Under the pieces are notes generated by a model that had not been told where the DNA came from, ran no database searches, and saw nothing but the letters and a program-made list of their open reading frames with translations. The translations under genes and the position numbers were made by a program. This document shows positions 5,791 to 48,547 of a stretch of DNA of 64,000 nucleotides, piece after piece (position 1 is the stretch's first letter; each line of letters opens with the position of its first letter). This DNA is from Candidatus Latescibacterota bacterium (GTDB taxonomy: Bacteria; Latescibacterota; UBA2968; UBA8231), in contig CBDFJF010000002.1 in NCBI GenBank assembly GCA_965248265.1, positions 3,395,052 through 3,459,051 on the forward strand, written 5' to 3'.

Positions 5791-6807
5791 GTGATCGTTT
5801 GGCTGCCACTGATTCGCGTATGGCGCCGGCTGAAAGGATACTCGCTCCTGTGGATAGCGCTGCTATCCGTGAGCTTGATTCTGATCGGTGGGCTGCTGTT
5901 CAGTCTCGTGGAGGAGGGGCGCTCGATCGGGGACGGCATCTGGTGGGCCGTGGTGACGACGACGACGGTCGGGTACGGCGATATGTACCCGGAAACCGAG
6001 TTTGGCAGAGCCGTCGGCGTCGTGCTCATGGTCCTCGGGATCGGTGTTCTGGGTGGATTCACCGCCGAATTAGCCACCACCATCATAGCGCGCCGCTCGC
6101 GCCGTGACAGGGGCCTCAAAGCCGTGAATGCCAACGATCACATCTTGATCTGTGGTTGGAATGACACCGGCGAAGACCTGGTCAGGAATCTGCTGGCAGA
6201 TCGTCGGGAGCCGTCCCTCGTCCTCCTGGCCAACATGGATCATTCCCCTCTGGACGACGAGCGTCTGATGTTCGTGCAGGGCCCGGTGACTGAGCATTGT
6301 CTGACGATGGCCGGAGCAGATCGAGCCGAGTCGGCGGTGGTTCTGGGAAGTCAGCAGATTGAGGATCTTCAGGGACGTGACGCCAAGTCGCTTATGAATT
6401 CTCTGACGATCAAGCAACACAACCCGGACATCTACGTATGTACCCAGCTGTTCGATTCTTCCAGCCTGACCAATGCCGAGCTCTCCAGAGCTGACGAGAT
6501 CGTCGTCGTCGGTGCCCTCGCCGGTGGCCTGTTGAGCCGGGCTGCTCTGGACCACGGTAGCTCCCGGGCGATTTCCAGTCTGGTGCGGACTGAGGAACAG
6601 TGTGAGATCTACCGGGTGTCTGTGCCCACTTCATGGGTCGGCCGCCGCTTCGGCGCGTTGCTGGAAGAAGCCAAGACCCAGGCGAATATTCTACTGGTGG
6701 GGGTCGAATCCGCCGCTGGTGATCTGGTGCTGAATCCTCCGGGGGATAGTGTGCTGGGAGAGCGGGACATGGTTGCCGTTATCGCCAACCAGCGCCCCCA
6801 CCTGTAG
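5791..6807 (+). CDS. two-TM potassium channel with C-terminal RCK/TrkA-N domain (MthK-like)
   Basis: Selectivity filter TTVGYGD followed by an RCK fold ([18 protein letters not shown]...). GTG start at 5791. Confidence 0.85.
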
Positions 6808-21538: not shown

Positions 21539-22558
21539 ATGGGATTTCTTTCGCGGTTTTTATCCAACGACATAGGGATCGATCTCGGTACGGCCAACAC
21601 GTTGATCTACGTAAAAGGGGAAGGCATCGTCTTGAACGAGCCTTCCATCGTCGCCCGTCATATCATGACGAAAAAGACGATAGCGGTCGGCGCCGAAGCC
21701 AAGGAGATGATGGGCCGTGAGAACTCGGAGATCGAGACCATACGTCCCCTCAAGGATGGTGTAATCGCCGACTTCGAAGTGACTGAGGAGATGATCAGGC
21801 ACTTCATCCGAAAGGTTCAGCGCAACAAGCTATTCGTTCGCCCCCGGATTGTCGTCTCCGTGCCTTCGGGCAGCACGGAGGTCGAAAAGCGGGCGGTCAG
21901 AAACTCCTGCGAACGCGTCGGGGCTCGCGACGTTTTCCTCGTGAGCGAGCCGATGGCAGCTGCCATCGGTATCGGGCTCCCGGTTGAGCAGGCCGTCGGT
22001 TCCATGGTCATCGATGTGGGTGGTGGGACGACGGAGATTGCCGTCATAGCACTGTCGGGCGTTGTGGCTCCCGAATCGATTCGCGTGGCTGGGGACGAAA
22101 TGGACCGGGCCATCACGGAGTGGATGCGCAAGAAGTACAACCTCCTGATCGGTCCTCGCAACGCCGAACAACTGAAGTTTCAGATCGGTTCAGCCATGCC
22201 ACTCGATCCCGAAGAGGAGGCCCCGGTGCGGGGCAGGGATCTCGTCGCTGCGATTCCGAAGACCCTGATGGTCGACTCCCGTGAGATTAGAGAAGCCCTT
22301 AGCGAGCCGGTGGAGCAGATCGTCGCCGGCGTTCGCCGAGCCCTGGAGCGCACGCCGCCTGAGTTGGCCGCTGACATTCTGGATCGCGGCATGGTTCTCA
22401 GCGGTGGTGGTGGCAAACTTCGAGGTCTGCGCGAACGCTTGATAGAGGCTACTAGCCTTCCAACCTTTCTCGATACCGAGGATCCATTGTCCGCGGTTGT
22501 ACGCGGCAACGCCCGGGTCCTGGATGAGTTCGAGCGTTATCAGAAAGTCCTCTACTGA
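21539..22558 (+). CDS. mreB: rod shape-determining protein MreB
   Basis: Actin-fold motifs DLGTANTLIY...VIDVGGGTTE. Confidence 0.95.
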   Translation: MGFLSRFLSNDIGIDLGTANTLIYVKGEGIVLNEPSIVARHIMTKKTIAVGAEAKEMMGRENSEIETIRPLKDGVIADFEVTEEMIRHFIRKVQRNKLFVRPRIVVSVPSGSTEVEKRAVRNSCERVGARDVFLVSEPMAAAIGIGLPVEQAVGSMVIDVGGGTTEIAVIALSGVVAPESIRVAGDEMDRAITEWMRKKYNLLIGPRNAEQLKFQIGSAMPLDPEEEAPVRGRDLVAAIPKTLMVDSREIREALSEPVEQIVAGVRRALERTPPELAADILDRGMVLSGGGGKLRGLRERLIEATSLPTFLDTEDPLSAVVRGNARVLDEFERYQKVLY

Positions 22559-24109: not shown

Positions 24110-24186
24110 GAGCTATTAGCTCAGCTGGATAGAGCGCTAGCCTCCGGAGCTAGAGGTCACAGGTTCGAATCCTGTATAGCTCGCCA
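24110..24186 (+). tRNA. tRNA-Arg (anticodon CCG)
   Basis: Manual cloverleaf: acceptor GAGCTAT/ATAGCTC, anticodon loop CTCCGGA, T-loop TTCGAAT, 3' CCA. Confidence 0.9.
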
Positions 24187-24199
24187 TCTGTCGACAGGT

Positions 24200-24276
<77 letters not shown>

Positions 24277-24385
24277 TCGTTTAGTGAGATTGGGCTAGGA
24301 TTCGTCGACAAAGAGGATTCCTGGCCCATTCTTCGTTCACGTACACGTTCACGGACATGGTTGGTAGGCTGGAGGGTAGGTACGT

Positions 24386-24463
24386 CGGGGTGTAGCGCAG
24401 TCCGGTTAGCGCACCTGCTTCGGGAGCAGGGGGTCGGCGGTTCGAATCCGCCCACCCCGACCA
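24386..24463 (+). tRNA. tRNA-Pro (anticodon CGG)
   Basis: Acceptor CGGGGTG/CACCCCG, anticodon loop TTCGGGA, T-loop TTCGAAT, 3' CCA. Confidence 0.9.
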
Positions 24464-24553: not shown

Positions 24554-25477
24554 ATGCGCCCCGTCGTTATCGCTGGACCCACTGCCGTTGGCAAGAGCAA
24601 GGTGGCTGTCAGTCTGGCCAGGGAATTGGGGGCTCAGATCATTTCTGTCGATTCTCGGCAGGTCTACCGATACATGGATATAGGCACTGCAAAGCCCGAT
24701 CGCGAAGATCTGGAGGCCGTCCCTCACCATCTGATCGATTTCATTGCGCCCGATGAACAGTACAGTGCGGGGACTTTTGGTCGCGACGCCGCAAGTATAG
24801 TGGCTCGTCTTGCCGGCAACGGAACTCGGGCTCTGCTCGTCGGTGGCTCAGGGTTGTATCTGTCTGCGTTTGTGGATGGGTTCTTTGACGCGGGTGAAGG
24901 AGATTTTGCCGCCGTCAGGAGGAACCTCCGAGAACGTCTGAAGCACGAGGGGCTGGAGGTCCTGTATCGCGAACTGGGCCAGCTCGATCCACACACTCAG
25001 CTCTCACTCGAAGCGAACGACGAGCAACGCATACTCCGAGCCCTTGAACTCGTGCCAGCGGGAGGGATGCAGCGATTGGCGAGGCACCAGGAACTGCACA
25101 CGACACAGTGTCCACCGCTGATGATCTGTTTGGGGATGGATCGACAGCAGCTCTATGACAGAATCGACGACCGAGTCAACGCCATGGTCGAGGCGGGCTG
25201 GGTTGCAGAAGTAAAGGGCCTTGTCGAGCGAGGGTTCGATGAAGGGGCCGTGGGGATGAATTCTCTTGGATATGGCGAGATTCTGTCGGTTTTGAGAGGA
25301 ACCAGCTCCCTGGATTTGGCGCTCGAGAGGATCAAGCGTCGCTCGAGGCAATACGCCAAGAGGCAGTTGACATGGTTCCGCAGGGATCGGCGCATGCGCT
25401 GGTTGGATATCGCTCAATTGGGCCATGATGGCGTCCTCGACCGGATCATGAGACAAACGACTACGGCGGACGCCTGA
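24554..25477 (+). CDS. miaA: tRNA dimethylallyltransferase
   Basis: P-loop AGPTAVGKS, DSRQVYR, and the typical length. Confidence 0.9.
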   Translation: MRPVVIAGPTAVGKSKVAVSLARELGAQIISVDSRQVYRYMDIGTAKPDREDLEAVPHHLIDFIAPDEQYSAGTFGRDAASIVARLAGNGTRALLVGGSGLYLSAFVDGFFDAGEGDFAAVRRNLRERLKHEGLEVLYRELGQLDPHTQLSLEANDEQRILRALELVPAGGMQRLARHQELHTTQCPPLMICLGMDRQQLYDRIDDRVNAMVEAGWVAEVKGLVERGFDEGAVGMNSLGYGEILSVLRGTSSLDLALERIKRRSRQYAKRQLTWFRRDRRMRWLDIAQLGHDGVLDRIMRQTTTADA

Positions 25478-28007: not shown

Positions 28008-28652
28008 TTTAGTGTATATTCACCAGTAGGTCGGTGGGAGCACCGACCTACACCACCCTCCAGGTGGTGAGTGAGTGCCCCCGTTGACCCCTGGTTGACG
28101 GGGGTCTACTCATACCTACCACAAAGGGCGGCCCCCATTCAGGGAACCGCCCTCTTCGTTTTAGGAACCGCAGGCGCATGACTATATCGCGGGTGAGCCC
28201 TCCAATCGGCCCACGACACGCGTAGCGGTCAAGCCTGCGCTACAGGGCGCACGAACGCCCGCCCTTTGATATACCACCGGTCGGGTGGTGGCAACGCTCC
28301 CACGCTGCACCCTCTCGGGCTTCAGGACGGACAAAAGCTGCCCCATCCTCCAGGACGCTTACCGGCTGTACGCCACTCCTTTTACCATCGGTCGGGTAAC
28401 GTTTAAACGATACCACATTCCGCAAGAAAAGTCCACAACTTTCTGCGCCCCAGCAGCTTACTCAATTTCTGGTTCATAGCAATGCGCTATGCTATGCCAC
28501 TGTGCGCCATGAGTGGATTGTTGGTTCTGTGGTGGGGCAAAATCCAACTATTTTGCCTGTATGCCCCACAAACTAAAATCCGGTCATTTTTCGCTTGCGG
28601 CGGGGTGTTTAAATGGCTTTCTTGCTATTCACTGGAGGGTGGTTTAAACGGT

Positions 28653-29441
28653 ATGGCTAATGAGATACAGGTGGCTCGCGAGCTGCGCGAGTTGACTCAA
28701 CGGCAGCTTGCGGAGCGCACCCAAGTGTCGAAATCAGGTATTTCGCGACTCGAAGGTGGTGAGGTGGAGCGAGTCGCGGTGAAGGATGTACGGGCGGTGT
28801 GTGTTGAGCTGGATCTGGCGTTAGAGGCGGTCGTCCCCCACAACACGGACCACCAAAACGATGTGCGAGCGCAGCGCTGGATAGGCCTGATAGCCAACCA
28901 GCTACTGCGGCGCACCTCGTGGCGGCAGCTGCCCGAGGCGCTGAGTCAGTGCACGCAGGATATACATTTCTATAGGCCCGAGATATCGGGCATGTCCATG
29001 ATCCTGGTGGACCATAACCGGCCCAACCATACCCTGTTCTATGGCTGCCTGATCGAGGGGGCACAGCATACGATCAACCTGCACCCGAGTGTCGTGCGGG
29101 ATAAGCTGGACAGTCTTCCGCCTGACACCGGGTACGTAGAGCAGATTAGCGGTAGCCCCGAGTGGTGCGCTGCTTCGTGGCGGCCCTTATGGTGCACGCA
29201 CCACCACTCTGAGTATGGAATATTCACGCTGCACAACCGGGCGGACCCGGAACGCGTCGGGGAAGCAGTCGAAACAGCCAGGCGCTGCAAGCGCGTGCTG
29301 GAAAAAGCTATCGCCCTGATCTACGCACTCTCCGATTTGGAGCGAGACGCCAGCATCATCGATCACGAGCATCGGCTGCGGGCGTTGGAGTCGCAGTTGC
29401 GAAGGGCATTAGAGGAAGAGGCGTATGGTTTAAACGAGTAA
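28653..29441 (+). CDS. XRE/CI-like HTH regulator with C-terminal domain (candidate prophage repressor)
   Basis: LTQRQLAERTQVSKSGISRLEGGE is the N-terminal HTH. 262 aa. Operator-like repeats lie upstream. Confidence 0.65.
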   Translation: MANEIQVARELRELTQRQLAERTQVSKSGISRLEGGEVERVAVKDVRAVCVELDLALEAVVPHNTDHQNDVRAQRWIGLIANQLLRRTSWRQLPEALSQCTQDIHFYRPEISGMSMILVDHNRPNHTLFYGCLIEGAQHTINLHPSVVRDKLDSLPPDTGYVEQISGSPEWCAASWRPLWCTHHHSEYGIFTLHNRADPERVGEAVETARRCKRVLEKAIALIYALSDLERDASIIDHEHRLRALESQLRRALEEEAYGLNE

Positions 29442-29628: not shown

Positions 29629-30429
29629 ATGGCCCGCCCCTGCCGCAGCACCAACACCGCCCAGCTGGCGGCTGCCCTGGCCCACGTCCAGGCCAAGCTC
29701 AAGTCCGCTGAGAAGTCCTCAGTAAATCCCCACCTCAAGAACAAGTACGCCGACCTGGAGTCCATCTGGAACGCCCTGCAGCCGCTGCTGGGCCAGCAGG
29801 GCATCGCCGTCACCCAAGGCGGCGCTGTGACCGGCGGGGATGTCGTCCTGGTCACCACGCTCATGCTGGGTGACGAGTGGATAGAGTCGCGCATCCCTGT
29901 GCGGCCCGAGACCCAGAAGGGTTTAAACGCCGCGCAGTCTTTCGGCGTAGCCTGGAGCTACACCCGACGCTATGCCCTGGCTGCCATCTGTGGCGTGCAG
30001 ACGGGCGAGGACACGGACGGGGCTACCGACAAGCCATCCGTTCCACGTGGAGCACCGCCCGATATCCCCGAGGACGAGAACCCACCCGAGAAAAACAAGG
30101 CTCCGTACTACCGCTATCTGGAGCGCTGCCAACAACTGAAGAAGTCCCTCGATGACGACGAGGCGTACTACGAAATCCTGGCTGGCTTCAAGCTCAACAA
30201 ATCCAACCAAACCAAGGATGTCAACGTCATGTCCGATGTGGTCGTCGCCCTGCAGGAGGCGGTCGTCGCCCTGGTGGCTGCCCACATAGTGAACGCCGAG
30301 AAAAGGCGCAGGATGTCCAAGGCCACCATCGAGACCAAGCGCAGGGAGCTGCTTACGGATTGGAAGAGCCTGCACAAAAACAGCGAACTGTCCCTGCGCA
30401 AGTACCTGGCTTCCATAGGGGGGGAGTAA
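29629..30429 (+). CDS. erf: ERF-family single-strand annealing protein
   Basis: NPHLKNKYADLESIW, the ERF signature comparable to P22 Erf. 266 aa. Confidence 0.85.
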   Translation: MARPCRSTNTAQLAAALAHVQAKLKSAEKSSVNPHLKNKYADLESIWNALQPLLGQQGIAVTQGGAVTGGDVVLVTTLMLGDEWIESRIPVRPETQKGLNAAQSFGVAWSYTRRYALAAICGVQTGEDTDGATDKPSVPRGAPPDIPEDENPPEKNKAPYYRYLERCQQLKKSLDDDEAYYEILAGFKLNKSNQTKDVNVMSDVVVALQEAVVALVAAHIVNAEKRRRMSKATIETKRRELLTDWKSLHKNSELSLRKYLASIGGE

Positions 30430-31064: not shown

Positions 31065-31327
31065 GCAAGGACACGCTGCGAGCGTTCTCGCGGGATGGCA
31101 AGGTGGTGCTCCAGTTCGGGCCACATGAATGGGACAAAATCGAGTTGCCCGCTGAGGAGGGGCGCAGGCTACGGGATCAGTTGACCATGATATGCCGCCA
31201 CGTCGCCAAAGGGCGTGGCTATTACTTCTACGATGCTAACAGGAGGAAGGGGAGACATGCAGGTCAAATTAGCGGAGGCACTGCTAAGAAGGAAGGAGCT
31301 GCAGCAGAAGGTAAAGCAGCTGGCTGA
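31061..31327 (+). CDS. hypothetical protein
   Basis: ATGA coupling to the upstream ORF. 88 aa. Overlaps the next gene by about 70 nt. Confidence 0.3.
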   Translation: MSKDTLRAFSRDGKVVLQFGPHEWDKIELPAEEGRRLRDQLTMICRHVAKGRGYYFYDANRRKGRHAGQISGGTAKKEGAAAEGKAAG

Positions 31328-31574
31328 AATCAACGTGCGTGACCTCTACGAGGTGAAGGCGCAGCGCAAAAAAGTCACCGACGACGTAGACGACATCGTG
31401 GTCCAGGTACCGCTGCTGACCATAGACCAGGTGACCCACGCCCACGACTGGCACGCCAAGCGGCTGCGGGAAGTGGACGCGGTGATTCAACAGGCGAACT
31501 GGGCCACAGACGTAGAGGTCGCAGACATGAGCGACTACGAGCCCCCACCCGAACTGCAGAAGAGGTCAAGATGA
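31257..31574 (+). CDS. hypothetical protein
   Basis: Strong SD AGGAGGAAGGGGA then ATG. 105 aa. Stop overlaps the SPFH start. Confidence 0.45.
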   Translation: MQVKLAEALLRRKELQQKVKQLAEINVRDLYEVKAQRKKVTDDVDDIVVQVPLLTIDQVTHAHDWHAKRLREVDAVIQQANWATDVEVADMSDYEPPPELQKRSR

Positions 31575-32431
31575 GTCCGAAAACAACCGTCCGCTTAGGC
31601 ATAGGCCTTGTCGGTGTGATGTTCGTGATGATCGTACTGGCTGCCAGCTTTGAAACCGTGAGTACCAACCACGTCGCTGTGGGCCTGCGCTTCGGCAAGG
31701 TAACCGGCGACGTGCTGGACGAAGGGCTACACCTGGTTAACCCGATTCTCGACTGGGACCACTTCAACTGCTTGGAGCAGGAAGTCACCTTCAAGGGCAT
31801 CACGGTGCCCGCCGAGGATCAGATGAAGGCGACGATGGATGTCACGGTGAAGGGCAGGTTCATGCCCGCCCATGCCGTGGTGCAGCGTCGGGAAACCGGC
31901 ACGCAGCAGCAGGTGATCGCCACGCACTTTCAGCCCATTGCACGCGGTGCCCTGCGCGAGGCGGGACGCTCCACGTCGAAGGTCGAGGAGTTCTACGAGG
32001 ACTCCAAGGTTGAGGAGTACCAATCCAACGCCCTGGCCATCCTGCAGGAAGGGCTGTCTGCCAAGGGCTACGAGATCACCGACGTGATCGTGCGAGACGT
32101 GAGCCTGCCCGAAGTCATCACCGCTGCCATCACCGCCAAGAAACAGCGGGAACAGGAGGTTGAGAAACAGCGGGCTGAGCTGAGCCGCATCGAGCTGGTG
32201 GCCGAACAGAAGGTCAAGCAGGCCATCGCGGACCGTGATGCCGCCGTGGAGATAGCGGTGGCCATCAGGGTGACCGCCGAAGCCGAGGCTTACGCCATCG
32301 AGGTCAAGAAGGCTGAGCTAACCGACCAGTACATCTCGTTTAAACTGGCCGAGGCGTGGGACGGGGGACTGCCGAAGCTGATGGGTAGCGGCGTCGTGCC
32401 GTTTCTCGACCTCACCGCGATGACGCAGTAA
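31571..32431 (+). CDS. SPFH/Band-7 (stomatin/prohibitin/HflK-like) membrane protein
   Basis: N-terminal TM helix, SPFH core, then the charged coiled coil AKKQREQEVEKQRAELSRIELVAEQKVKQA... typical of HflK/C and stomatins. 286 aa. Confidence 0.85.
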   Translation: MSPKTTVRLGIGLVGVMFVMIVLAASFETVSTNHVAVGLRFGKVTGDVLDEGLHLVNPILDWDHFNCLEQEVTFKGITVPAEDQMKATMDVTVKGRFMPAHAVVQRRETGTQQQVIATHFQPIARGALREAGRSTSKVEEFYEDSKVEEYQSNALAILQEGLSAKGYEITDVIVRDVSLPEVITAAITAKKQREQEVEKQRAELSRIELVAEQKVKQAIADRDAAVEIAVAIRVTAEAEAYAIEVKKAELTDQYISFKLAEAWDGGLPKLMGSGVVPFLDLTAMTQ

Positions 32432-32532
32432 TGCACCTGTTGCTGGTGGGGGTCGCCATCGGAATTGTCATCGGCCATCTGGTAACAGTGTACTGGCCCG
32501 ACATAGTGCGCAAGGCCACCAAACGTAAATAG
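32431..32532 (+). CDS. 33-aa single-TM peptide translationally coupled to the SPFH gene
   Basis: TAATG overlap. MHLLLVGVAIGIVIGHLVTVYWPDIVRKATKRK. Confidence 0.35.
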   Translation: MHLLLVGVAIGIVIGHLVTVYWPDIVRKATKRK

Positions 32533-32639
32533 CGCGGGGTGCGCTAAATAGGACGAGAAAGGGCGTAGGAAACGCATGAGGTTGGCCGCGTACCTCACCC
32601 AAACGCGAGAAGCATCCGGTTGCTTCGACTGCAATTATC

Positions 32640-32714
32640 GCAACGGTAGCTCACTGGTAGAGCATCAGCCCTGAGAGCTGAGTGTAGCGGGTTCAATTCC
32701 CGTCCACTGCATCC
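32640..32714 (+). tRNA. tRNA-like element (degenerate; possible phage tRNA pseudogene)
   Basis: Canonical D-arm TAGCTCACTGGTAGAGC, perfect anticodon stem TCAGC/GCTGA, T-arm GCGGGTTCAATTCCCGT. Acceptor has 2 of 7 mismatches and C at position 33. Confidence 0.3.
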
Positions 32715-32890
32715 GCCTGTTAAGCGGGTATAGAGACACCCAGGATAGACTGGGGCGAAGCCCGATTGACCGAATCGCGAACGGTGAGACATCCGAACTG
32801 ACCGAATAGCCGCACATCCGACGCCCGAATGCGAGAAGCCCGACTAACCACGTTTCCGACTTTCTCGTCCGACCATCCAGGAGAACCACG

Positions 32891-33304
32891 ATGATCTACA
32901 CCACCGTCACATGGCCACGTGAACGCTGGCCCAACTTCACCTTCAACGAGATGGCCTGCACCCACTGCGGCGTGTGTGATGTGGACGAGCTGTTCATGGA
33001 CACGCTGCAGCTGATCCGCAACGAGCTGAGCACCGCCATGCAGATCACCAGCGGCTACCGCTGCGCCGATCACCCTATAGAAGTCCTCAAGGCGAAGCCT
33101 GGGAGCCATGAGAAGGGTTGCGCCGTGGATGTGGCCTGTTGGGGGGCTCGCGCCTACCGACTCCTACAGGCCGCGTGCAAGGACGACAGGATGGCGGGTA
33201 TTGGCATCCACCAGAGCCCCAAGGCCCCCAATGCCAAACGATTCCTGCATCTGGATCAGCTGGTAGCCGACTATCGCCCGGCGCTGTGGAGCTACGACAA
33301 ATGA
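32891..33304 (+). CDS. peptidase M15A-family (YcbK/endolysin-like) cell-wall hydrolase
   Basis: NFTFNEMACTHCG...SGYRCADHP...HEKGCAVD matches the Peptidase_M15_3 pattern. 137 aa. Confidence 0.65.
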   Translation: MIYTTVTWPRERWPNFTFNEMACTHCGVCDVDELFMDTLQLIRNELSTAMQITSGYRCADHPIEVLKAKPGSHEKGCAVDVACWGARAYRLLQAACKDDRMAGIGIHQSPKAPNAKRFLHLDQLVADYRPALWSYDK

Positions 33305-33654: not shown

Positions 33655-33989
33655 ATGAACTATCAGACATCCTGGCCCAGGCGGCAGCTGACGCCGAGCA
33701 AGTGCGAGCGGAAGCCATAGATGTCAAGCAAGAAGAGGCGGAGGGCAAGGCGGCCAGACGCCGCCACGTGCACTCCATACCCAAGATGTTCTTTACGTGG
33801 CGCGAGGCGGCCTGGGTATCGGGCATCGGTATGCGGACGCTACAGCGCTTCGCCAAAGAAGGCCAGCTCAGAATCTGCCGTATCGGCGGCGTCACCCGTA
33901 TCCGCCGTGAGGACTTGGACCAACTCGCAATCGACCACATGGTGACTGATGACGACGATAACGGACCCAACATACAACAATCAGTTTGA
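33651..33989 (+). CDS. excisionase-family HTH (MerR/Xis-like) DNA-binding protein
   Basis: FFTWREAAWVSGIGMRTLQRFAKEGQLRICRIGGVTRIRREDLDQL is an HTH_17-type motif. Confidence 0.6.
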   Translation: MNELSDILAQAAADAEQVRAEAIDVKQEEAEGKAARRRHVHSIPKMFFTWREAAWVSGIGMRTLQRFAKEGQLRICRIGGVTRIRREDLDQLAIDHMVTDDDDNGPNIQQSV

Positions 33990-34461
33990 CCAGTATTTCA
34001 ACGAGGATGGCCCGGAACCGATGGACATACGGGCCGATGAGGACGCCGAGGTGCACGCCCGCTGCCTGCGTTATTGGCAGGAGCAGTATGAGGTAGTATC
34101 CAATCGCTTTGACGAAGAGGTGGCCCGCCTGATCGGACGCGCCGAGAAGGCCCTGAATAGCATCAGACGGCGCGAAGCATGGCACGAGGCGTCCCTGAAG
34201 ATGTTTTACCAGTACAAGGGCGAGAAGCGGCTGGTAATGGCCAACGCCACGCTGTCGAGCCAGAAGGGGCGGGAGCGCATCGAGGTGGCCGATATGGACG
34301 CCCTGGAGTCCTGGGCGGTGACTGAGGGCTACGAGAGTCTTCTAAACCGGAAGGTGGACCCCGACAAGGCGGCCATCATGGCGCACGTCAAGAACACGGG
34401 CGAGGAGCCGCCGGGGGTGAGCCTGGAGCGCGGAGAGGATTCCTTTAAGGTGAAATTTTGA
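33949..34461 (+). CDS. Mu Gam-like host-nuclease inhibitor / DNA-end-binding protein
   Basis: C-terminal pattern KRLVMANATL...IEVADMDALESW...DPDKAAIM...GVSLERGEDSFKV parallels Mu Gam (GMDAV...NKEAIL...GIEDFSI). Confidence 0.5.
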   Translation: MTTITDPTYNNQFDQYFNEDGPEPMDIRADEDAEVHARCLRYWQEQYEVVSNRFDEEVARLIGRAEKALNSIRRREAWHEASLKMFYQYKGEKRLVMANATLSSQKGRERIEVADMDALESWAVTEGYESLLNRKVDPDKAAIMAHVKNTGEEPPGVSLERGEDSFKVKF

Positions 34462-35788: not shown

Positions 35789-36001
35789 TCACGCATCGGC
35801 GCAGCAGCTGGGCACCCAATCCTGCGTGTAGTCGCAATCGAGGCAGTACAACCCACCCCGCCCCACGCGCAGTGGCCGATGGCTGTGCCCTCCGTCACCG
35901 CAAGTTAGCTCATGGAAATTTGGGTTTTCCTGCCACCGTCTAATGGCGTCGATTTCATACTGTGAAAATGGTGCCTTAACTTGCGGCATCTTACTACTCA
36001 T
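35789..36001 (-). CDS. small Cys-rich protein
   Basis: 70-aa ORF with CGDGGHSH...CLDC...CC. Confidence 0.35.
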   Translation of the reverse strand: MSSKMPQVKAPFSQYEIDAIRRWQENPNFHELTCGDGGHSHRPLRVGRGGLYCLDCDYTQDWVPSCCADA

Positions 36002-42569: not shown

Positions 42570-43067
42570 TTGCTCATAAAGCAAAAGCGCGGGGCGTTTT
42601 GCGAGCACGATGAGTTTGAGCGGCTGCACGATCAGTCGGCCTATCGCTGCAGGGGTTGCAACGAGCAGGTATCCCACCTTGACATCTATGAGGATAGAAA
42701 TATGGGAACGCTCAATTATAGACCGGGATTCAGTAAATACGATGTGCTCGACGCCGATTGGACCGATGACGATGGCGGCATCACCGAAAGCCTGTGGGAC
42801 AGGGTGTGGAGCAAGCAAATCCAGAAGATGGCACCGACGCTGGTGGACAACGTGATGGGCAAGGAAATCATGGAACCGGTCTATTTTCGGCCCTTCGAGG
42901 CCGGGGAAACGCTTACGGCATCCCGTTTAAACAGCGCGTTTGAGTCGGTGATGGACTACAACCGGCTGCAGAGCACGAAGCCGATGCGCATGGGCAGATT
43001 GACGGGAATTTCGCTCTCTCAACGGCCTTCTTTTGCTGAATTTTCATCCTTCCCTGCTTTTTCGTAG
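42570..43067 (+). CDS. hypothetical protein with N-terminal C-H-C-C motif (start uncertain)
   Basis: CEHDEFERLHDQSAYRCRGC. TTG start or ATG 42702 possible. Confidence 0.35.
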   Translation: MLIKQKRGAFCEHDEFERLHDQSAYRCRGCNEQVSHLDIYEDRNMGTLNYRPGFSKYDVLDADWTDDDGGITESLWDRVWSKQIQKMAPTLVDNVMGKEIMEPVYFRPFEAGETLTASRLNSAFESVMDYNRLQSTKPMRMGRLTGISLSQRPSFAEFSSFPAFS

Positions 43068-43122
43068 TATTGGGGCAGGAGGATGGGAGATGAACCAAAA
43101 CCTCCACCGAAGGAGGAGAGCG

Positions 43123-43215
43123 ATGTTTGAAACCATCGTTGGGACGGTAATCGGAGGGCTGGTGTTCTTTTGGATACTGGGTAAAATCAGTGACAAGGGA
43201 AAGAAGGATGAGTGA
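43123..43215 (+). CDS. 30-aa single-TM peptide
   Basis: SD AGGAGGAG then ATG. MFETIVGTVIGGLVFFWILGKISDKGKKDE. Confidence 0.3.
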   Translation: MFETIVGTVIGGLVFFWILGKISDKGKKDE

Positions 43216-43976: not shown

Positions 43977-44369
43977 ATGGCAAGGGGAGTCAACAGCTGC
44001 ACGTTTATCGGGAACCTGGGTAACGACGTAGAGCTAAAATACACCCCCAGCGGCAAAGCGGTTGTCAACGCTTCGCTGGCGGTGAATGAAGAGTGGGGCA
44101 CCGGCGACGACCGCCAACAAAAGGTCGAGTGGGTGTCCCTTGTTGTATGGGATACCCTGGCTGAAGTGATGGGCAAGTACTGCCGCAAGGGGTCCAAGCT
44201 CTACGTCACCGGGCGACTGCAGACACGTACCTGGGAGAACAACGACGGAGGGAAACAGTACAAGACGGAAATCGTCGTGCGCGAGCTACTGTTTCTCGAT
44301 CACAACCCGTCGGAGGCCGCCCAGGCGCAGCAACAAACCAGAGAGGAGGACGACGACCTACCGTTTTAA
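43977..44369 (+). CDS. ssb: single-stranded DNA-binding protein
   Basis: MARGVNSCTFIGNLGND... OB fold with acidic tail EEDDDLPF. Confidence 0.85.
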   Translation: MARGVNSCTFIGNLGNDVELKYTPSGKAVVNASLAVNEEWGTGDDRQQKVEWVSLVVWDTLAEVMGKYCRKGSKLYVTGRLQTRTWENNDGGKQYKTEIVVRELLFLDHNPSEAAQAQQQTREEDDDLPF

Positions 44370-44607: not shown

Positions 44608-45015
44608 ATGCCAGCAGGAGCAGTAAAGAAATATTCTGACGACCAGATCATTGCCGCCCTGCACGCTACGGGCGGCCTTGTGACGCACGCGGCCAAGGCG
44701 ATGGGTACGGTACCCAAGACGCTCTACGACCGCATGGCCCGCACCCCGGCGCTCAAGCTCGCCCTGGACGAGATACGCAACGGCAAGCTGGATTTCGCCG
44801 AATCGAAGCTGATGGAACTGATCGCCAAGGGGCAACCCTCTGCGATCATTTTTTTTCTCAAGTGCCTGGGCAAGGAGCGCGGCTACGTCGAGCGCGTCGA
44901 GAATACCGGCAAGGATGGCAAGGATTTAAACATCCTACCGGTGATCGCTCCGCCACGCGCTGCTAATATGGAAGAGTGGTTAGAGCAGAACCGCAAAGAG
45001 GCCAACGCCGCATGA
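44608..45015 (+). CDS. terminase small subunit
   Basis: N-terminal HTH. Positioned directly upstream of, and overlapping, the large terminase gene. Confidence 0.65.
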   Translation: MPAGAVKKYSDDQIIAALHATGGLVTHAAKAMGTVPKTLYDRMARTPALKLALDEIRNGKLDFAESKLMELIAKGQPSAIIFFLKCLGKERGYVERVENTGKDGKDLNILPVIAPPRAANMEEWLEQNRKEANAA

Positions 45016-46478
45016 GCACGGCCCTCGACAGACTGCAGGCACCCATTGTCAAAGCGGCACATGGTCCGGGGGAGATCCCTCCTCCCGCCAAGGACGGGGA
45101 GGTAGCCTGGAAGCCGCAGGAGGGACCGCAGTCAGCGGCCATCCGTGCCGCTTTTGTCGATGAGCTGTTCTACGGCGGTGCCGCTGGTGGTGGTAAGTCG
45201 GATTTCCTGTTGGGTGACTTCCTGCAGGACGTGTTCCAGGGTGCCGCATGGCAGGGCGTGCTGTTTAGACGCTCCTATCCCGCCCTGGACGAGCTGGTCC
45301 ACCGTTCTCATCAAATCTTCCCGTTTACCGGTGCCAAGTGGAAAGCGGGGGCCTACCAGTGGGTGTGGCCCAACGGCGCGATGCTGCGTTTCCGCCACAT
45401 GGAAAACGTCTTCGACTTCACCAAGTACCTGGGTCACTCCTGGTCGTGGATTGGGTTTGACGAACTACCCGAGTGGGAGGATTTGGCCTGCTACAATCGT
45501 ACCAAGTCCCGTTTGCGTGGGGTGGCCAAACACAAGCGGATGCGCTCGACCGGCAACCCTGGCGGTCCTGGCCATCACGCGGTGCAAGCCTACTTCGGTA
45601 TTCCCGATGAACCGCTGGGGTTGGGCAACATCGAAGTCATCCGGGACGAGGACACCGCCATGTCGCGGATGTTCATTCCGGCCCGCGTCCAGGACAACAA
45701 AATCCTGCTGGATTCGGATCCCTCCTACGTCTCGCGCCTCAAGGGCGTCGGTGACCCGGAGCTGGTCAAGGCGTGGCTGGAGGGAGATTGGCGAGCCCTG
45801 GTCGGTGGCTTCTTTGTGTGGGCTGAGCCCGAGGTCGCTTGCGACCCGTTCATGGTGGGCGAGGATTGGCCGCTGTTCGGGTGCATCGATTACGGGGAAT
45901 ACGCGCCCTGCTGCTGCCTGCTCTTGAGCGTGGACTACGATGATCGCGTCTACGTCGTCGGTGAATACTACCAGGCCGAACGCTCAGCGCACGAAAACGC
46001 CGCAGGCATAATGGAAATGATCCAAGGGTGTCCGTTCACGAAGGGGCGGATGCCCGATCACATTTATGCCCCGCACGACATGTGGATACGGCGTCGGTTG
46101 GGTGAGGATTCAGCCAATGCGGCCGAGGACGTTTTTCGGCAAGCCGGGCTCTATCTCACCAAGGCTGCCGTGGGCCGCGAGGCCAAAATCAATGGCTGGC
46201 GCATCATCAACACGGCCCTGCATCGCGGCTTCTTGAAGGTGTTTCGCAAGAGCGCTCCCAACCTGATGCGCACGGCTCCCACCATCACTCGCGACGACCG
46301 CAACCGCGAGGACATTTCCCCGCGCTCTGAAGATCACGCCTTGGACGCGTTGCGTTACGGGATGCTCCACATCTACACGCCCGCTGAGCCAGTGAAACCC
46401 GCGCAGAAAAACCCATTTCTGGGCGACAACGTGATAAAGACGCAACAGAAGCTGGCCAAGATGGGAGCGTTGCGGTGA
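45012..46478 (+). CDS. terminase large subunit
   Basis: Walker A GGAAGGGKS, ATPase and nuclease halves. ATGA overlap with terS. Confidence 0.85.
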   Translation: MSTALDRLQAPIVKAAHGPGEIPPPAKDGEVAWKPQEGPQSAAIRAAFVDELFYGGAAGGGKSDFLLGDFLQDVFQGAAWQGVLFRRSYPALDELVHRSHQIFPFTGAKWKAGAYQWVWPNGAMLRFRHMENVFDFTKYLGHSWSWIGFDELPEWEDLACYNRTKSRLRGVAKHKRMRSTGNPGGPGHHAVQAYFGIPDEPLGLGNIEVIRDEDTAMSRMFIPARVQDNKILLDSDPSYVSRLKGVGDPELVKAWLEGDWRALVGGFFVWAEPEVACDPFMVGEDWPLFGCIDYGEYAPCCCLLLSVDYDDRVYVVGEYYQAERSAHENAAGIMEMIQGCPFTKGRMPDHIYAPHDMWIRRRLGEDSANAAEDVFRQAGLYLTKAAVGREAKINGWRIINTALHRGFLKVFRKSAPNLMRTAPTITRDDRNREDISPRSEDHALDALRYGMLHIYTPAEPVKPAQKNPFLGDNVIKTQQKLAKMGALR

Positions 46479-48547
46479 AACAAAAAGACATTGATTTCTG
46501 GAAAAAGCAGATCGATGCCACCAACCGCTTCATGGCTCCCAAGCACAAGGTGTGGAAACGTCTGCTGCAGCAGTACCGGCTGGAATTTGCCGACATGCCG
46601 GTCGAGGAGGCCAAGCAGCGCAAGATTTCGCGCTTCTATCCGATCACCCGCCAGATTATCGCCAGCATTGCCTTCTTCAATCCCCGCGTCTTGCTGCGGG
46701 TCGAGGACAACAACCGCGAGTTCCAGGCCGAGCTGCTGGAGCGTGTGGCCAACGACGCTCTGCGTTTGCAGAACGCCAAGCGGGAGATTCAGCAGCAGAT
46801 TTTCGACACGCTCTACTGCAACGTCGGCTGGGTCAAGATGGGCGTGAACCCACCCGGCGATAAAGAGCTGATCCCGCCTTATGTGGCCAACGACTCGCTG
46901 GCCAACGGCATGGTGTTTTTACAGCGGCGCTCGCCCTTCGACATCTACCCGGACCCGCTGACCCCGCCGCACGATTTCGGCCAAGCCCGCTTTATGCGCG
47001 AGGACATGCTGGCCCCCCATGAGTTTGTCATGGAGGACGAGCGCTTCAAGAAGTTTAAACACCGCGACCAGATTAAGCCGCTGTCTGACGCCGACGCCGA
47101 GGAGAAAATCCTGGAGAATATCCAGGAAGCCAATCCGGCATCGGAGGAGGAGGAGCGCCAAGCCATGATGGATTCGCGCATCGAGGGCAAGTACGTCCTC
47201 CTGCATGAAATCCATCATCGCACCAAGAAGAGGATGTACACCTTTGCCGAGGGCGTGGAGCAGCCGCTGGAGGACATCGAGCATCCCTTCCTGGCAGGCA
47301 CCACACTGACGGAAGCAGACCCGTTCACGGGCGAGGACCACATCGTTGGCTTCCAGGCCACCGAAGGGTTTTTAGTGGCCAACGGCTTCCCCTACATCCC
47401 GATGAAATTCGATAAGTCGTTCGACTCCTTCTACGGCTTGCCGATGATGGGCTACGATGAGGACATCCAGGAGGGCATCATCGAGTCGATGTCCCGGCGC
47501 ATGGACAACCTCAAGCGCGGCGCTCGCATGGTGGTGGGCAACCAGAAGGAAAAAGCGCTCAACCCCAACATCGAGGAAGAGTTCGCCAAGGGCGATGACG
47601 GCCACATTCTTTGGTCGAACGACCCGAACAACAGTTTCCGCGAAGTGCTTACCGGTAACATTCTGCCCGACCAGTTGGGCACCGAATCCGACCTGCGTAA
47701 CTACGAAGAGCAGATACTGCAGGTGGGAGCCACGTCGGTGGGCGGCTCGCGGACGACGGCCACACAGGCGTCTCTAACCGCGTCGTTCGGCCAGCTCAAT
47801 CGGGAGTGGATGCAAGATGAAGTAGCGCGGGTGTTTGAGGACGTGTCCTACAACAACCTGCGCATCATGGGCGACAAGCGCTACACCCCCAACAACTTCA
47901 TCGTCAACGTCGAGCAGTCGGACAATGACCCGGTGTACGAGGCCGTGACCTCCGACATGCTGCGGGCGCGGTTCAAGGTGCAAATCGAGGCGGGTTCGAT
48001 GAAGCCGCTGTTCGATCAGCTGGAACGCGACGACGCCTTGGCCTTGTTCAACTACCTCATCCAGGTGCCCGAGGTACCACGCCAGGAGTCGTTGAAGCTG
48101 CTGCTGCGTGCCTTCCGGGTTCCCAACATCGAAAAGTTCTTGGGCGACGAAGCCCACACCGATGCGGTGCGAGCTGCACAGCTGGAAAACATGCTGATGC
48201 TACAAGGCCAGCCTCTGCAGGTTACGCCGCTTGAAAATCACATGGTGCACATGCGCCACCATCAGCAGCTGTTTGCCGCTCCGCACTACACGCAAATGCT
48301 ACCGCAACAGCAGCAAATCGTGCAACAGCTGGTGGTGCAGCACATGCAACTCCACGAGCAGGCGTTGGCACAGCGGGCGCAGGGTCTTCGACCTGGACCC
48401 TCCAATGTGTCCGACGCTGGAGGAGGTGGCGGCGGTGGTGGTCCTATGGAAACCGTGCAGGCGGCTACCGGTAAGGTGGACTCAGCCGTTCGCTCCTCCG
48501 CTCAAACGATTGGCCAGAAGGTCAACATAGACGCGAATCAAAATTGA
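46475..48547 (+). CDS. portal protein
   Basis: 690 aa following the terminase. Q-rich and Gly-rich C-terminus. Confidence 0.7.
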   Translation: MKQKDIDFWKKQIDATNRFMAPKHKVWKRLLQQYRLEFADMPVEEAKQRKISRFYPITRQIIASIAFFNPRVLLRVEDNNREFQAELLERVANDALRLQNAKREIQQQIFDTLYCNVGWVKMGVNPPGDKELIPPYVANDSLANGMVFLQRRSPFDIYPDPLTPPHDFGQARFMREDMLAPHEFVMEDERFKKFKHRDQIKPLSDADAEEKILENIQEANPASEEEERQAMMDSRIEGKYVLLHEIHHRTKKRMYTFAEGVEQPLEDIEHPFLAGTTLTEADPFTGEDHIVGFQATEGFLVANGFPYIPMKFDKSFDSFYGLPMMGYDEDIQEGIIESMSRRMDNLKRGARMVVGNQKEKALNPNIEEEFAKGDDGHILWSNDPNNSFREVLTGNILPDQLGTESDLRNYEEQILQVGATSVGGSRTTATQASLTASFGQLNREWMQDEVARVFEDVSYNNLRIMGDKRYTPNNFIVNVEQSDNDPVYEAVTSDMLRARFKVQIEAGSMKPLFDQLERDDALALFNYLIQVPEVPRQESLKLLLRAFRVPNIEKFLGDEAHTDAVRAAQLENMLMLQGQPLQVTPLENHMVHMRHHQQLFAAPHYTQMLPQQQQIVQQLVVQHMQLHEQALAQRAQGLRPGPSNVSDAGGGGGGGGPMETVQAATGKVDSAVRSSAQTIGQKVNIDANQN

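Follow-up and report, generated by a model that had tools for sequence, protein, structure and literature searches.

Why a phage genome should hold an SPFH gene was described in a 2026 paper as a question that 'remains unclear' (PMC13239085), and no experimentally established role of SPFH proteins in phage biology was found in the literature. This question is raised again by a prophage locus in a Candidatus Latescibacterota bacterium (GenBank assembly GCA_965248265.1, contig CBDFJF010000002.1, positions 3,395,052 to 3,459,051). In this stretch of 64,000 nucleotides, which is referred to as the window, a gene for an SPFH/Band-7 protein is directly followed by a gene for a 33-aa single-pass microprotein, and homologues of this peptide accompany the SPFH gene in related loci. 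The phage SPFH gene itself is ordinary; the new part is only the conserved coupled peptide partner. The microprotein offers a concrete handle on the question of SPFH genes in phages, and the pair is small enough to be expressed, pulled down, imaged and mutated.

The glycine-zipper microprotein and its SPFH partner

The microprotein (MHLLLVGVAIGIVIGHLVTVYWPDIVRKATKRK) is encoded at 32431–32532 on the + strand and contains one transmembrane segment and a basic C-terminal tail. At the stop/start junction (CAG TAATG C; 32427–32433, + strand), which was read from the sequence, the TAA stop codon of the SPFH gene and the ATG start codon of the peptide gene have one base (A) in common (...CAG TAATG CAC...). 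This one-base overlap of stop and start suggests that the peptide is probably made by translational coupling, as the initial annotation of this DNA had proposed.

Within the window alone, an open reading frame (ORF) of 33 codons is not significant, with 93 ORFs of at least 25 aa per 6.5 kb. The peptide was compared across 13 loci, which comprise the window and the DNA around 12 of the 21 SPFH relatives described below (11 retrieved by exact look-up, and P0012, which is locus L010, from a genome-collection scan). A homologous peptide was observed 3´ of the SPFH gene in 12 of these 13 loci. In ten distinct clade loci (eleven as fetched: the window, L001–L005, L008, L091/L092, L093 and L094), the start of a 33–46-aa ORF lies at -1 to +3 nt relative to the SPFH stop codon. 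L007 has a single additional gene between its SPFH and peptide genes, and in L006 the glycine-zipper helix forms the N-terminus of a 127-aa protein (6350–6733). In both of these loci, the peptide start overlaps the stop of the single intervening gene.

Gly11, Gly15 and Trp22 are invariant among the peptides, and Gly7 is present in 11 of the 12. These residues form the conserved motif GxxxGxxxG...W, a glycine zipper followed by a Trp residue at the membrane interface, with a semi-conserved His or aromatic residue after the third Gly. The Gly codons vary at their synonymous positions (GGA, GGC, GGG and GGT), which fits selection on the protein. Each of the 12 loci contains a hydrophobic [GA]xxxGxxxGx6W motif exactly once, and for the window this holds over all 64 kb; other loci show it 3 times in 504 kb and never beside an SPFH gene. 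At the level of sequence comparison, these observations establish the 33-aa ORF as a real gene under selection. Gene callers miss such short ORFs: a database search with an alignment headed by a 46-aa member retrieved 5 called genes of this kind among 5.8 billion protein clusters, none of them informatively named. No match was obtained for the peptide in Pfam, PHROG or NCBIfam, and tblastn of the peptide against phages returned nothing.

The basic tail of the window copy and the natural fusion in L006 point to a probable N-out/C-in orientation of the peptide. The C-terminal CxxC...CxxC domain of the 127-aa L006 protein, which has zero matches to Pfam or PHROG families, is 39% identical (E=2e-8) to a 70-aa Cys-rich ORF of the window (35789–36001, - strand) that stands free 3.3 kb downstream of the SPFH–peptide module. 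The fusion is a possible clue to a cytoplasmic partner of the peptide.

The SPFH gene (31571–32431, + strand) encodes a protein of 286 aa, and its start ATG overlaps the stop codon of the upstream gene (ATGA). The protein matches the Band_7 profile (PF01145) at residues 29–203 with E=2.7e-25 and 89.9 bits, above the cut-off of 23.6, and the alignment spans profile positions 2–173 of 176. It also matches phrog_200 (E=1.2e-53). The AlphaFold2 monomer, predicted from a 22-sequence alignment with a mean pLDDT of 86.3, comprises an N-terminal helix (residues 3–25), a β-rich SPFH domain (residues 27–178) and a 69-residue coiled-coil helix (residues 181–249). The tail is flexible and carries a conserved W-D-G-x-L-P...V-P-F-L at the C-terminus. 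The top Foldseek matches are erlin1/2 (6e-15), HflC (1.2e-14), prohibitin (4e-14) and QmcA (1.2e-10), with further matches to stomatin and to HflK/C complexed with FtsH; the Foldseek probability is 1.00 to erlin, HflC/K, prohibitin, stomatin, QmcA and flotillin. In a profile search of the PDB, QmcA (1.1e-11) was the nearest solved relative, followed by HflC (2e-7), and a PDB search with the single SPFH sequence found nothing. The agreement of Pfam, phrog_200, AlphaFold2 and Foldseek shows that the 286-aa ORF is a genuine full-length SPFH protein of cage-type architecture, which upholds its initial annotation.

A Lys or Arg residue lies ahead of the hydrophobic N-terminal core in all 22 proteins of the clade to which the window protein belongs, and in five of the 22 a lipobox Cys is positioned directly before A-S-F/I-E-T-V, the opening of the SPFH domain. 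Because of these two features, the SPFH and coiled-coil body is predicted to be extracytoplasmic, as in HflK/C, and thus to face the periplasm. The window protein has no such Cys and should therefore stay signal-anchored. By analogy with the cellular cages, it may oligomerise as a ring or cage at the outer surface of the inner membrane.

The 21 relatives are 42–67% identical to the window protein. In a neighbour-joining tree, which was built without bootstrap support, the 22 proteins form one deeply branched clade, apart from the cellular group and a T5-like phage homologue. About 80 cellular 'prohibitin family' relatives, found in a scan of one genome per GTDB species, are 35–43% identical and include proteins from Latescibacterota chromosomes; the peptide is present in none of their loci. 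The clade contigs are phage-like, with genes for integrase, DNA polymerase A, RtcB, NAMPT, Ro60/VWA, ClpB-like proteins, sigma factors and Phage_L5_gp82, and with arrays of up to 16 tRNAs. The SPFH clade is thereby shown to be confined to phage-like contigs. The initial annotation had raised a recent, decaying capture of a host gene; this was not seen, the closest relatives being a diversified clade with the cellular proteins outside it. An exhaustive HMMER search returned only a handful of 50%-identity representatives above 250 bits, which indicates that the clade is small; the superfamily around it is large (2,386 HMMER matches at E≤1e-10). A profile scan of IMG/VR found one distant locus, L009, and a scan with the single sequence found nothing.

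An all-versus-all comparison of neighbouring ORFs in the related loci revealed no conserved neighbour besides the peptide. The only other recurring neighbour is a VWA-domain protein in three loci (L002, 7054–7761; L008, 4196–5038; L006, 3853–4494), whose gene lies directly 3´ of the peptide gene in two of them and nearby in the third. A Ro60/TROVE gene follows the VWA gene in L002, and no VWA homologue was found in the window. Among cellular loci, Delongbacteria and related metagenome-assembled genomes (L030, L036, L044, L059, L067 and L087) encode, after the prohibitin-family gene, a membrane protein of 61–72 aa (MRLTKSKKNSMLFGVCGGIAEWLDWDP...) that appears to resemble a PspC domain.

Prophage setting and neighbouring genes

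The bacterial chromosome fills the window from position 1 to about 25,500. This part contains genes for amine oxidase, spermidine synthase, adenylosuccinate lyase, a lytic transglycosylase and mreC, together with mreB (21539–22558), three tRNAs (24110–24463) and miaA (24554–25477). The encoded MreB shares a 90%-identity cluster with Candidatus Latescibacterota, which makes this phylum the probable host. Phage genes extend from 28.5 kb or earlier through the window end, and the left boundary of the prophage falls somewhere in the interval from miaA to 28.5 kb. Among the phage genes are those for an HTH regulator (28482–29441), Erf (29629–30429), a Gam-like protein (33949–34461), SSB (43977–44369), the small and large terminase (44608–46478) and the portal (46475–48547). 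The presence of Erf, the Gam-like protein, SSB, the large terminase and the portal confirms the phage setting. The DNA of the 29.5–36 kb region has zero matches to isolated phages by DNA similarity, and the large terminase shows at most 33% identity to any isolated phage. G+C content is about 0.59 and even over the host and phage parts. No integrase was found within the 64-kb window, and the prophage probably extends beyond it.

The SPFH–peptide module lies within the Erf/Gam recombination gene block, in the same direction as its tightly packed neighbours. The early-gene region named in the initial annotation thus holds as a co-directional recombination block, with the term 'early' drawn from gene content. 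A scan for sigma-70 promoters and terminators gave counts no higher than in shuffled sequence, with a sigma-70 consensus applied to a host that is not a proteobacterium. In the phage part (25500–64000), clear membrane proteins are limited to the SPFH protein and the peptide, and neither a holin nor a spanin could be recognised. A small hydrophobic ORF (43123–43215; MFETIVGTVIGGLVFFWILGKISDKGKKDE, 30 aa from an internal ATG) is contained in the listed ORF 43033–43215, upstream of ssb and flanked by genes of no assigned function.

Directly upstream of the SPFH gene is a DUF6847/DIP1984-family gene (31215–31574, probable start 31258), which matches Pfam with E=2e-6 and NCBIfam with E=6e-8, under the cut-off of the latter. 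It was rejected as a part of the module: despite the ATGA overlap, related loci do not retain it next to their SPFH genes.

Downstream of the module, an element first described as tRNA-like (32640–32711, + strand) proved to be a genuine tRNA gene by ARAGORN and Rfam RF00005 (53.8 bits, compared with a gathering score of 29; E=9.7e-11). The gene is atypical. Its anticodon is UGA (Ser by ARAGORN), it has C rather than U at position 33, its 5-nt variable loop is of class I rather than the long arm of tRNA-Ser, and its acceptor stem contains two mismatches. That it belongs to the same unit finds no support elsewhere, as a tRNA directly downstream was found only in L003 and the tRNA genes of some related loci have no fixed position.

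The tRNA gene is followed by a gene for an M15A-type peptidoglycan peptidase of endolysin type (32891–33304, + strand; 137 aa), which lies 359 nt from the module. The protein matches Peptidase_M15_3 (PF08291; E=1e-8, 35.7 bits, cut-off 23.2) and phrog_894 'endolysin' (E=2.8e-23). Its zinc motif SxHxxGxAxD is intact (SHEKGCAVD), a signal peptide is lacking, and the identity to endolysins of Vibrio and Salinivibrio phages is about 40%. The initial annotation is therefore correct about the presence of this peptidase, but a functional unit with it is not supported: for the other clade loci, precomputed Pfam lists show no peptidoglycan hydrolase close to the SPFH gene, L010 having no such list. The module includes neither the tRNA gene nor the peptidase, which adjoin it in this genome only.

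A putative membrane scaffold and its alternatives

We lean slightly towards a reading in which the SPFH protein and the microprotein form one two-subunit inner-membrane scaffold complex, by analogy with cellular SPFH pairs. The pair would act in the manner of SPFH–NfeD (QmcA–YbbJ) or HflK/C scaffolds. The signal-anchor, replaced in five relatives by a lipid anchor, would hold the SPFH protein on the cytoplasmic membrane, with the SPFH ring on the periplasmic face. The microprotein would either serve as the membrane-embedded subunit or be a client enclosed in the fenced patch of membrane. Made together with the phage recombination genes, the module may isolate or remodel part of the host inner membrane during infection, and if the client were host FtsH, the phage would gain control over FtsH-dependent protein turnover.

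Several points weigh against this scaffold reading. We infer the physical contact between the SPFH protein and the peptide from analogy with the cellular pairs, and sorting to the outer membrane could separate the lipoprotein versions from a peptide of the inner membrane. L010 is the only clade locus without the peptide. The peptide tail is not conserved in sequence or net charge among the relatives, and the N-out/C-in orientation is derived from the basic tails of some members and from one natural fusion. PADLOC defence models gave zero matches for the SPFH protein, the peptide and the M15 peptidase, and thus no link to defence.

FtsH as the client is the weakest step, and we regard it as rather unlikely. 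It is a candidate by analogy: HflK/C and prohibitins, which are extracytoplasmic-facing SPFH cages, hold FtsH-type proteases. The window protein, however, scored 17.4 and 17.7 bits with the NCBIfam HflC equivalog models, far below their cut-offs of 134 and 427, and no HflK model matched at E≤0.01. In addition, it is encoded by a lone SPFH gene and not by an HflK/HflC pair. Several of its relatives appear in contigs that resemble large virulent phages, and T5-like phages, which also carry SPFH genes, are virulent. A lambda-CII-type lysogeny switch is therefore not a general role of these proteins. The idea that a phage HflC homologue biases lysogeny via FtsH and CII had already been printed, as speculation, for phage CSP3 (PMC10269572).

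Superinfection exclusion is a different explanation, and an unlikely one. The periplasm-facing anchored protein, together with the peptide, would form an envelope barrier that blocks the DNA entry of other phages, a logic known from Imm and Sp of T4, Llp of T5 and the Ltp lipoprotein of TP-J34. The predicted periplasmic topology, the lipoboxes in five relatives and the position of the module among recombination (early-type) genes are consistent with such a barrier, as is the occurrence of SPFH genes in both temperate and apparently virulent phages. In T4-like phages, moreover, the SPFH gene comes second after rI, a gene whose function in lysis inhibition is a response to superinfection; this part of the genome is variable, however, and the synteny may be coincidental. 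One paper guesses at a function in adsorption or in the entry of DNA (PMC13239085). On the other hand, the PADLOC search revealed no similarity to known exclusion or defence proteins, no SPFH protein is known to act in this way, and the cage architecture suggests a scaffold over a receptor blocker.

Alternatively, the peptide could be the active component, with the periplasmic SPFH cage confining or gating it. The peptide would then be a viroporin-like pore or a transmembrane FtsH inhibitor, similar to lambda CIII or SpoVM. We assign this a distinctly low likelihood. If true, a gated pore or an FtsH inhibitor would be the first defined mechanism for the widespread phage SPFH genes, and a peptide acting as the active component would represent a new type of regulator, encoded by a phage and acting on the host inner membrane. 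In the specific form in which the glycine-zipper helix oligomerises into a pore and the SPFH cage gates or confines it, as stomatins regulate ion channels, the proposal draws on the GxxxGxxxG motif with its semi-conserved His or aromatic residue. It also draws on stomatin bound to aquaporin-1 among the Foldseek matches (9zd2) and on the tight gene coupling, which suggests matched amounts of both proteins. Glycine zippers, however, serve plain helix packing too, neither toxicity nor ion conductance is in evidence, and no comparable system has been described, which makes the pore quite improbable.

The neighbouring M15 peptidase brings lysis control into consideration. The peptide would be a minimal holin or antiholin that is corralled by the SPFH cage, and the pair would time the release of the endolysin, which lacks a signal peptide and is encoded 359 nt downstream. 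No other holin-like membrane protein was found in the phage part of the window, and the T4-like SPFH genes near rI could be read in the same way. In Kayvirus, the genes of the SPFH protein MbpS and its single-pass partner MbpV lie in a neighbourhood of lysis enzymes and a tRNA module, with that of the endolysin LysK on one side and that of Tgl on the other (PMC7150955). Against lysis control, the other clade loci show no peptidoglycan hydrolase close to the module, a tRNA gene separates module and peptidase in the window, and the module is located among recombination (early-type) genes. A holin has one or more transmembrane domains, a C-terminus that carries charge and, as a rule, a length of 60 aa or more. 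The window peptide has a single transmembrane segment and a basic tail, the tails of its relatives vary in charge, and at 33 aa it is about half as long as the smallest known holins. The true lysis cassette may also be past the window end. Taken as a whole, a function in lysis timing has a slim chance of being correct.

The idea of a functionless passenger, in which a prohibitin-family gene was recently captured from the host and the 33-aa ORF arose by chance, can practically be dismissed: Latescibacterota chromosomes do hold prohibitin-family relatives and G+C content is even across the host and phage parts, but the nearest cellular relatives are 35–43% identical and fall outside the phage clade, the clade itself is deeply diversified, and a chance ORF was rejected given protein-level conservation of the peptide in 12/13 loci and a motif that is unique per locus.

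SPFH genes and membrane partners in phages and cells

The initial annotation regarded SPFH genes as uncommon in phage genomes, which the wider survey contradicts. By tblastn, SPFH homologues were found in 915 of 50,697 phage records (~2%), including T5-like, T4-like, Klebsiella, Aeromonas, Kayvirus/Staphylococcus, Vibrio and Burkholderia phages. They are usually annotated as 'lipoprotein' or 'SPFH domain protein', and were listed in T4-like genomes already in 2006 (PMC1524935).

A small membrane-protein gene lies directly against the SPFH gene in 6 of 12 other phage SPFH loci that were sampled, and these partners are mutually non-homologous. They comprise Kayvirus MbpV (102 aa; 1-nt overlap with the SPFH gene; PMC7150955), gp49 of Burkholderia phage phi1026b (4-nt overlap), membrane-protein genes on either side of the SPFH gene in Burkholderia phage Maja, a 32-aa peptide in T4-like UPEC03 and Klebsiella phage 05F (MNIKQI(I/V)LTI(F/L)ISLFFGFIGG..., unannotated in 05F), and an abutting gene in the IMG/VR contig L009. 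No such membrane partner was found at the SPFH loci of T5-like, Alteromonas, Vibrio eugene and Proteus phages. This small sample suggests that an SPFH protein with a small membrane partner recurs in phages, in parallel to the cellular SPFH–NfeD pairs. The 32-aa glycine-rich peptide begins about 50 nt after the SPFH gene in Pseudotevenvirus UPEC03 (L098, 2941–3039) and Slopekvirus 05F (L103, 2444–2542).

NAD-salvage genes also recur beside phage SPFH genes in unrelated lineages. The SPFH gene is directly followed by genes for NMN adenylyltransferase and PnuC in a T5-like phage (L090) and by NadM in T4-like phages (L098 and L103), and NAMPT lies within ~2.5 kb of it in clade loci L001 and L002. 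RtcB recurs near SPFH genes in L001, L092, L094 and Proteus phage P59.

Among the known systems, PM0222 of Pasteurella multocida is an HflK/C-like SPFH protein that is prophage-borne, as is the window protein (PMC9872710). The work on PM0222 treated it as a host-directed virulence factor, with export in outer-membrane vesicles and signalling via TLR1/2, and neither a phage-biology role nor a peptide partner is reported for it (PMC9872710). The 'lipoproteins' of phrog_200 from T5-like phages, T4-like RB43, RB16 and Aeh1, and Burkholderia phages belong to the same PHROG family as the window protein and share the signal-anchor or lipobox N-terminus. They are encoded in accessory regions near tRNA and NAD-salvage genes. 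In contrast to the clade described here, these homologues are at most 33% identical to the window protein and lack the glycine-zipper peptide, with the unrelated 32-aa peptide in its place in T4-like phages and none in T5-like phages.

Kayvirus MbpS and MbpV resemble the phage module in gene arrangement, as the genes of the SPFH protein and the single-pass protein overlap in both cases. However, Kayvirus has a Gram-positive host, its partner gene is located upstream, is three times longer and is non-homologous, and the SPFH proteins share only ~22% identity. The only role suggested for the Kayvirus pair, an aid to the Sec-dependent export of Tgl, is speculative (PMC7150955).

The HflK/HflC–FtsH complex of E. 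coli (PDB 7vhp, 7vhq, 7wi3 and 9cz2) exhibits the same anchor, SPFH domain, long wall helix and C-terminal cap, and its body is periplasmic, as predicted for the window protein. Structural alignments with HflK/C nevertheless give only ~17–19% identity. HflK and HflC are encoded by two side-by-side paralogues, whereas the phage has a single SPFH gene, whose neighbours are the DUF6847-like gene and the gene of the 33-aa peptide, its partner.

Cellular SPFH genes are often paired with NfeD genes, and 26 QmcA–YbbJ heterodimers make up one cage (PMC13086221). This cage juts into the cytoplasm (PMC13086221), and the body of the window protein is predicted to be periplasmic instead. The NfeD partners carry an NfeD/OB-fold domain, which the phage peptide does not have. 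In its genetic organisation, the SPFH–NfeD pair QmcA–YbbJ (PDB 8z5g) resembles the phage module, with an SPFH gene and an adjacent, co-oriented gene for a small membrane-protein partner in both.

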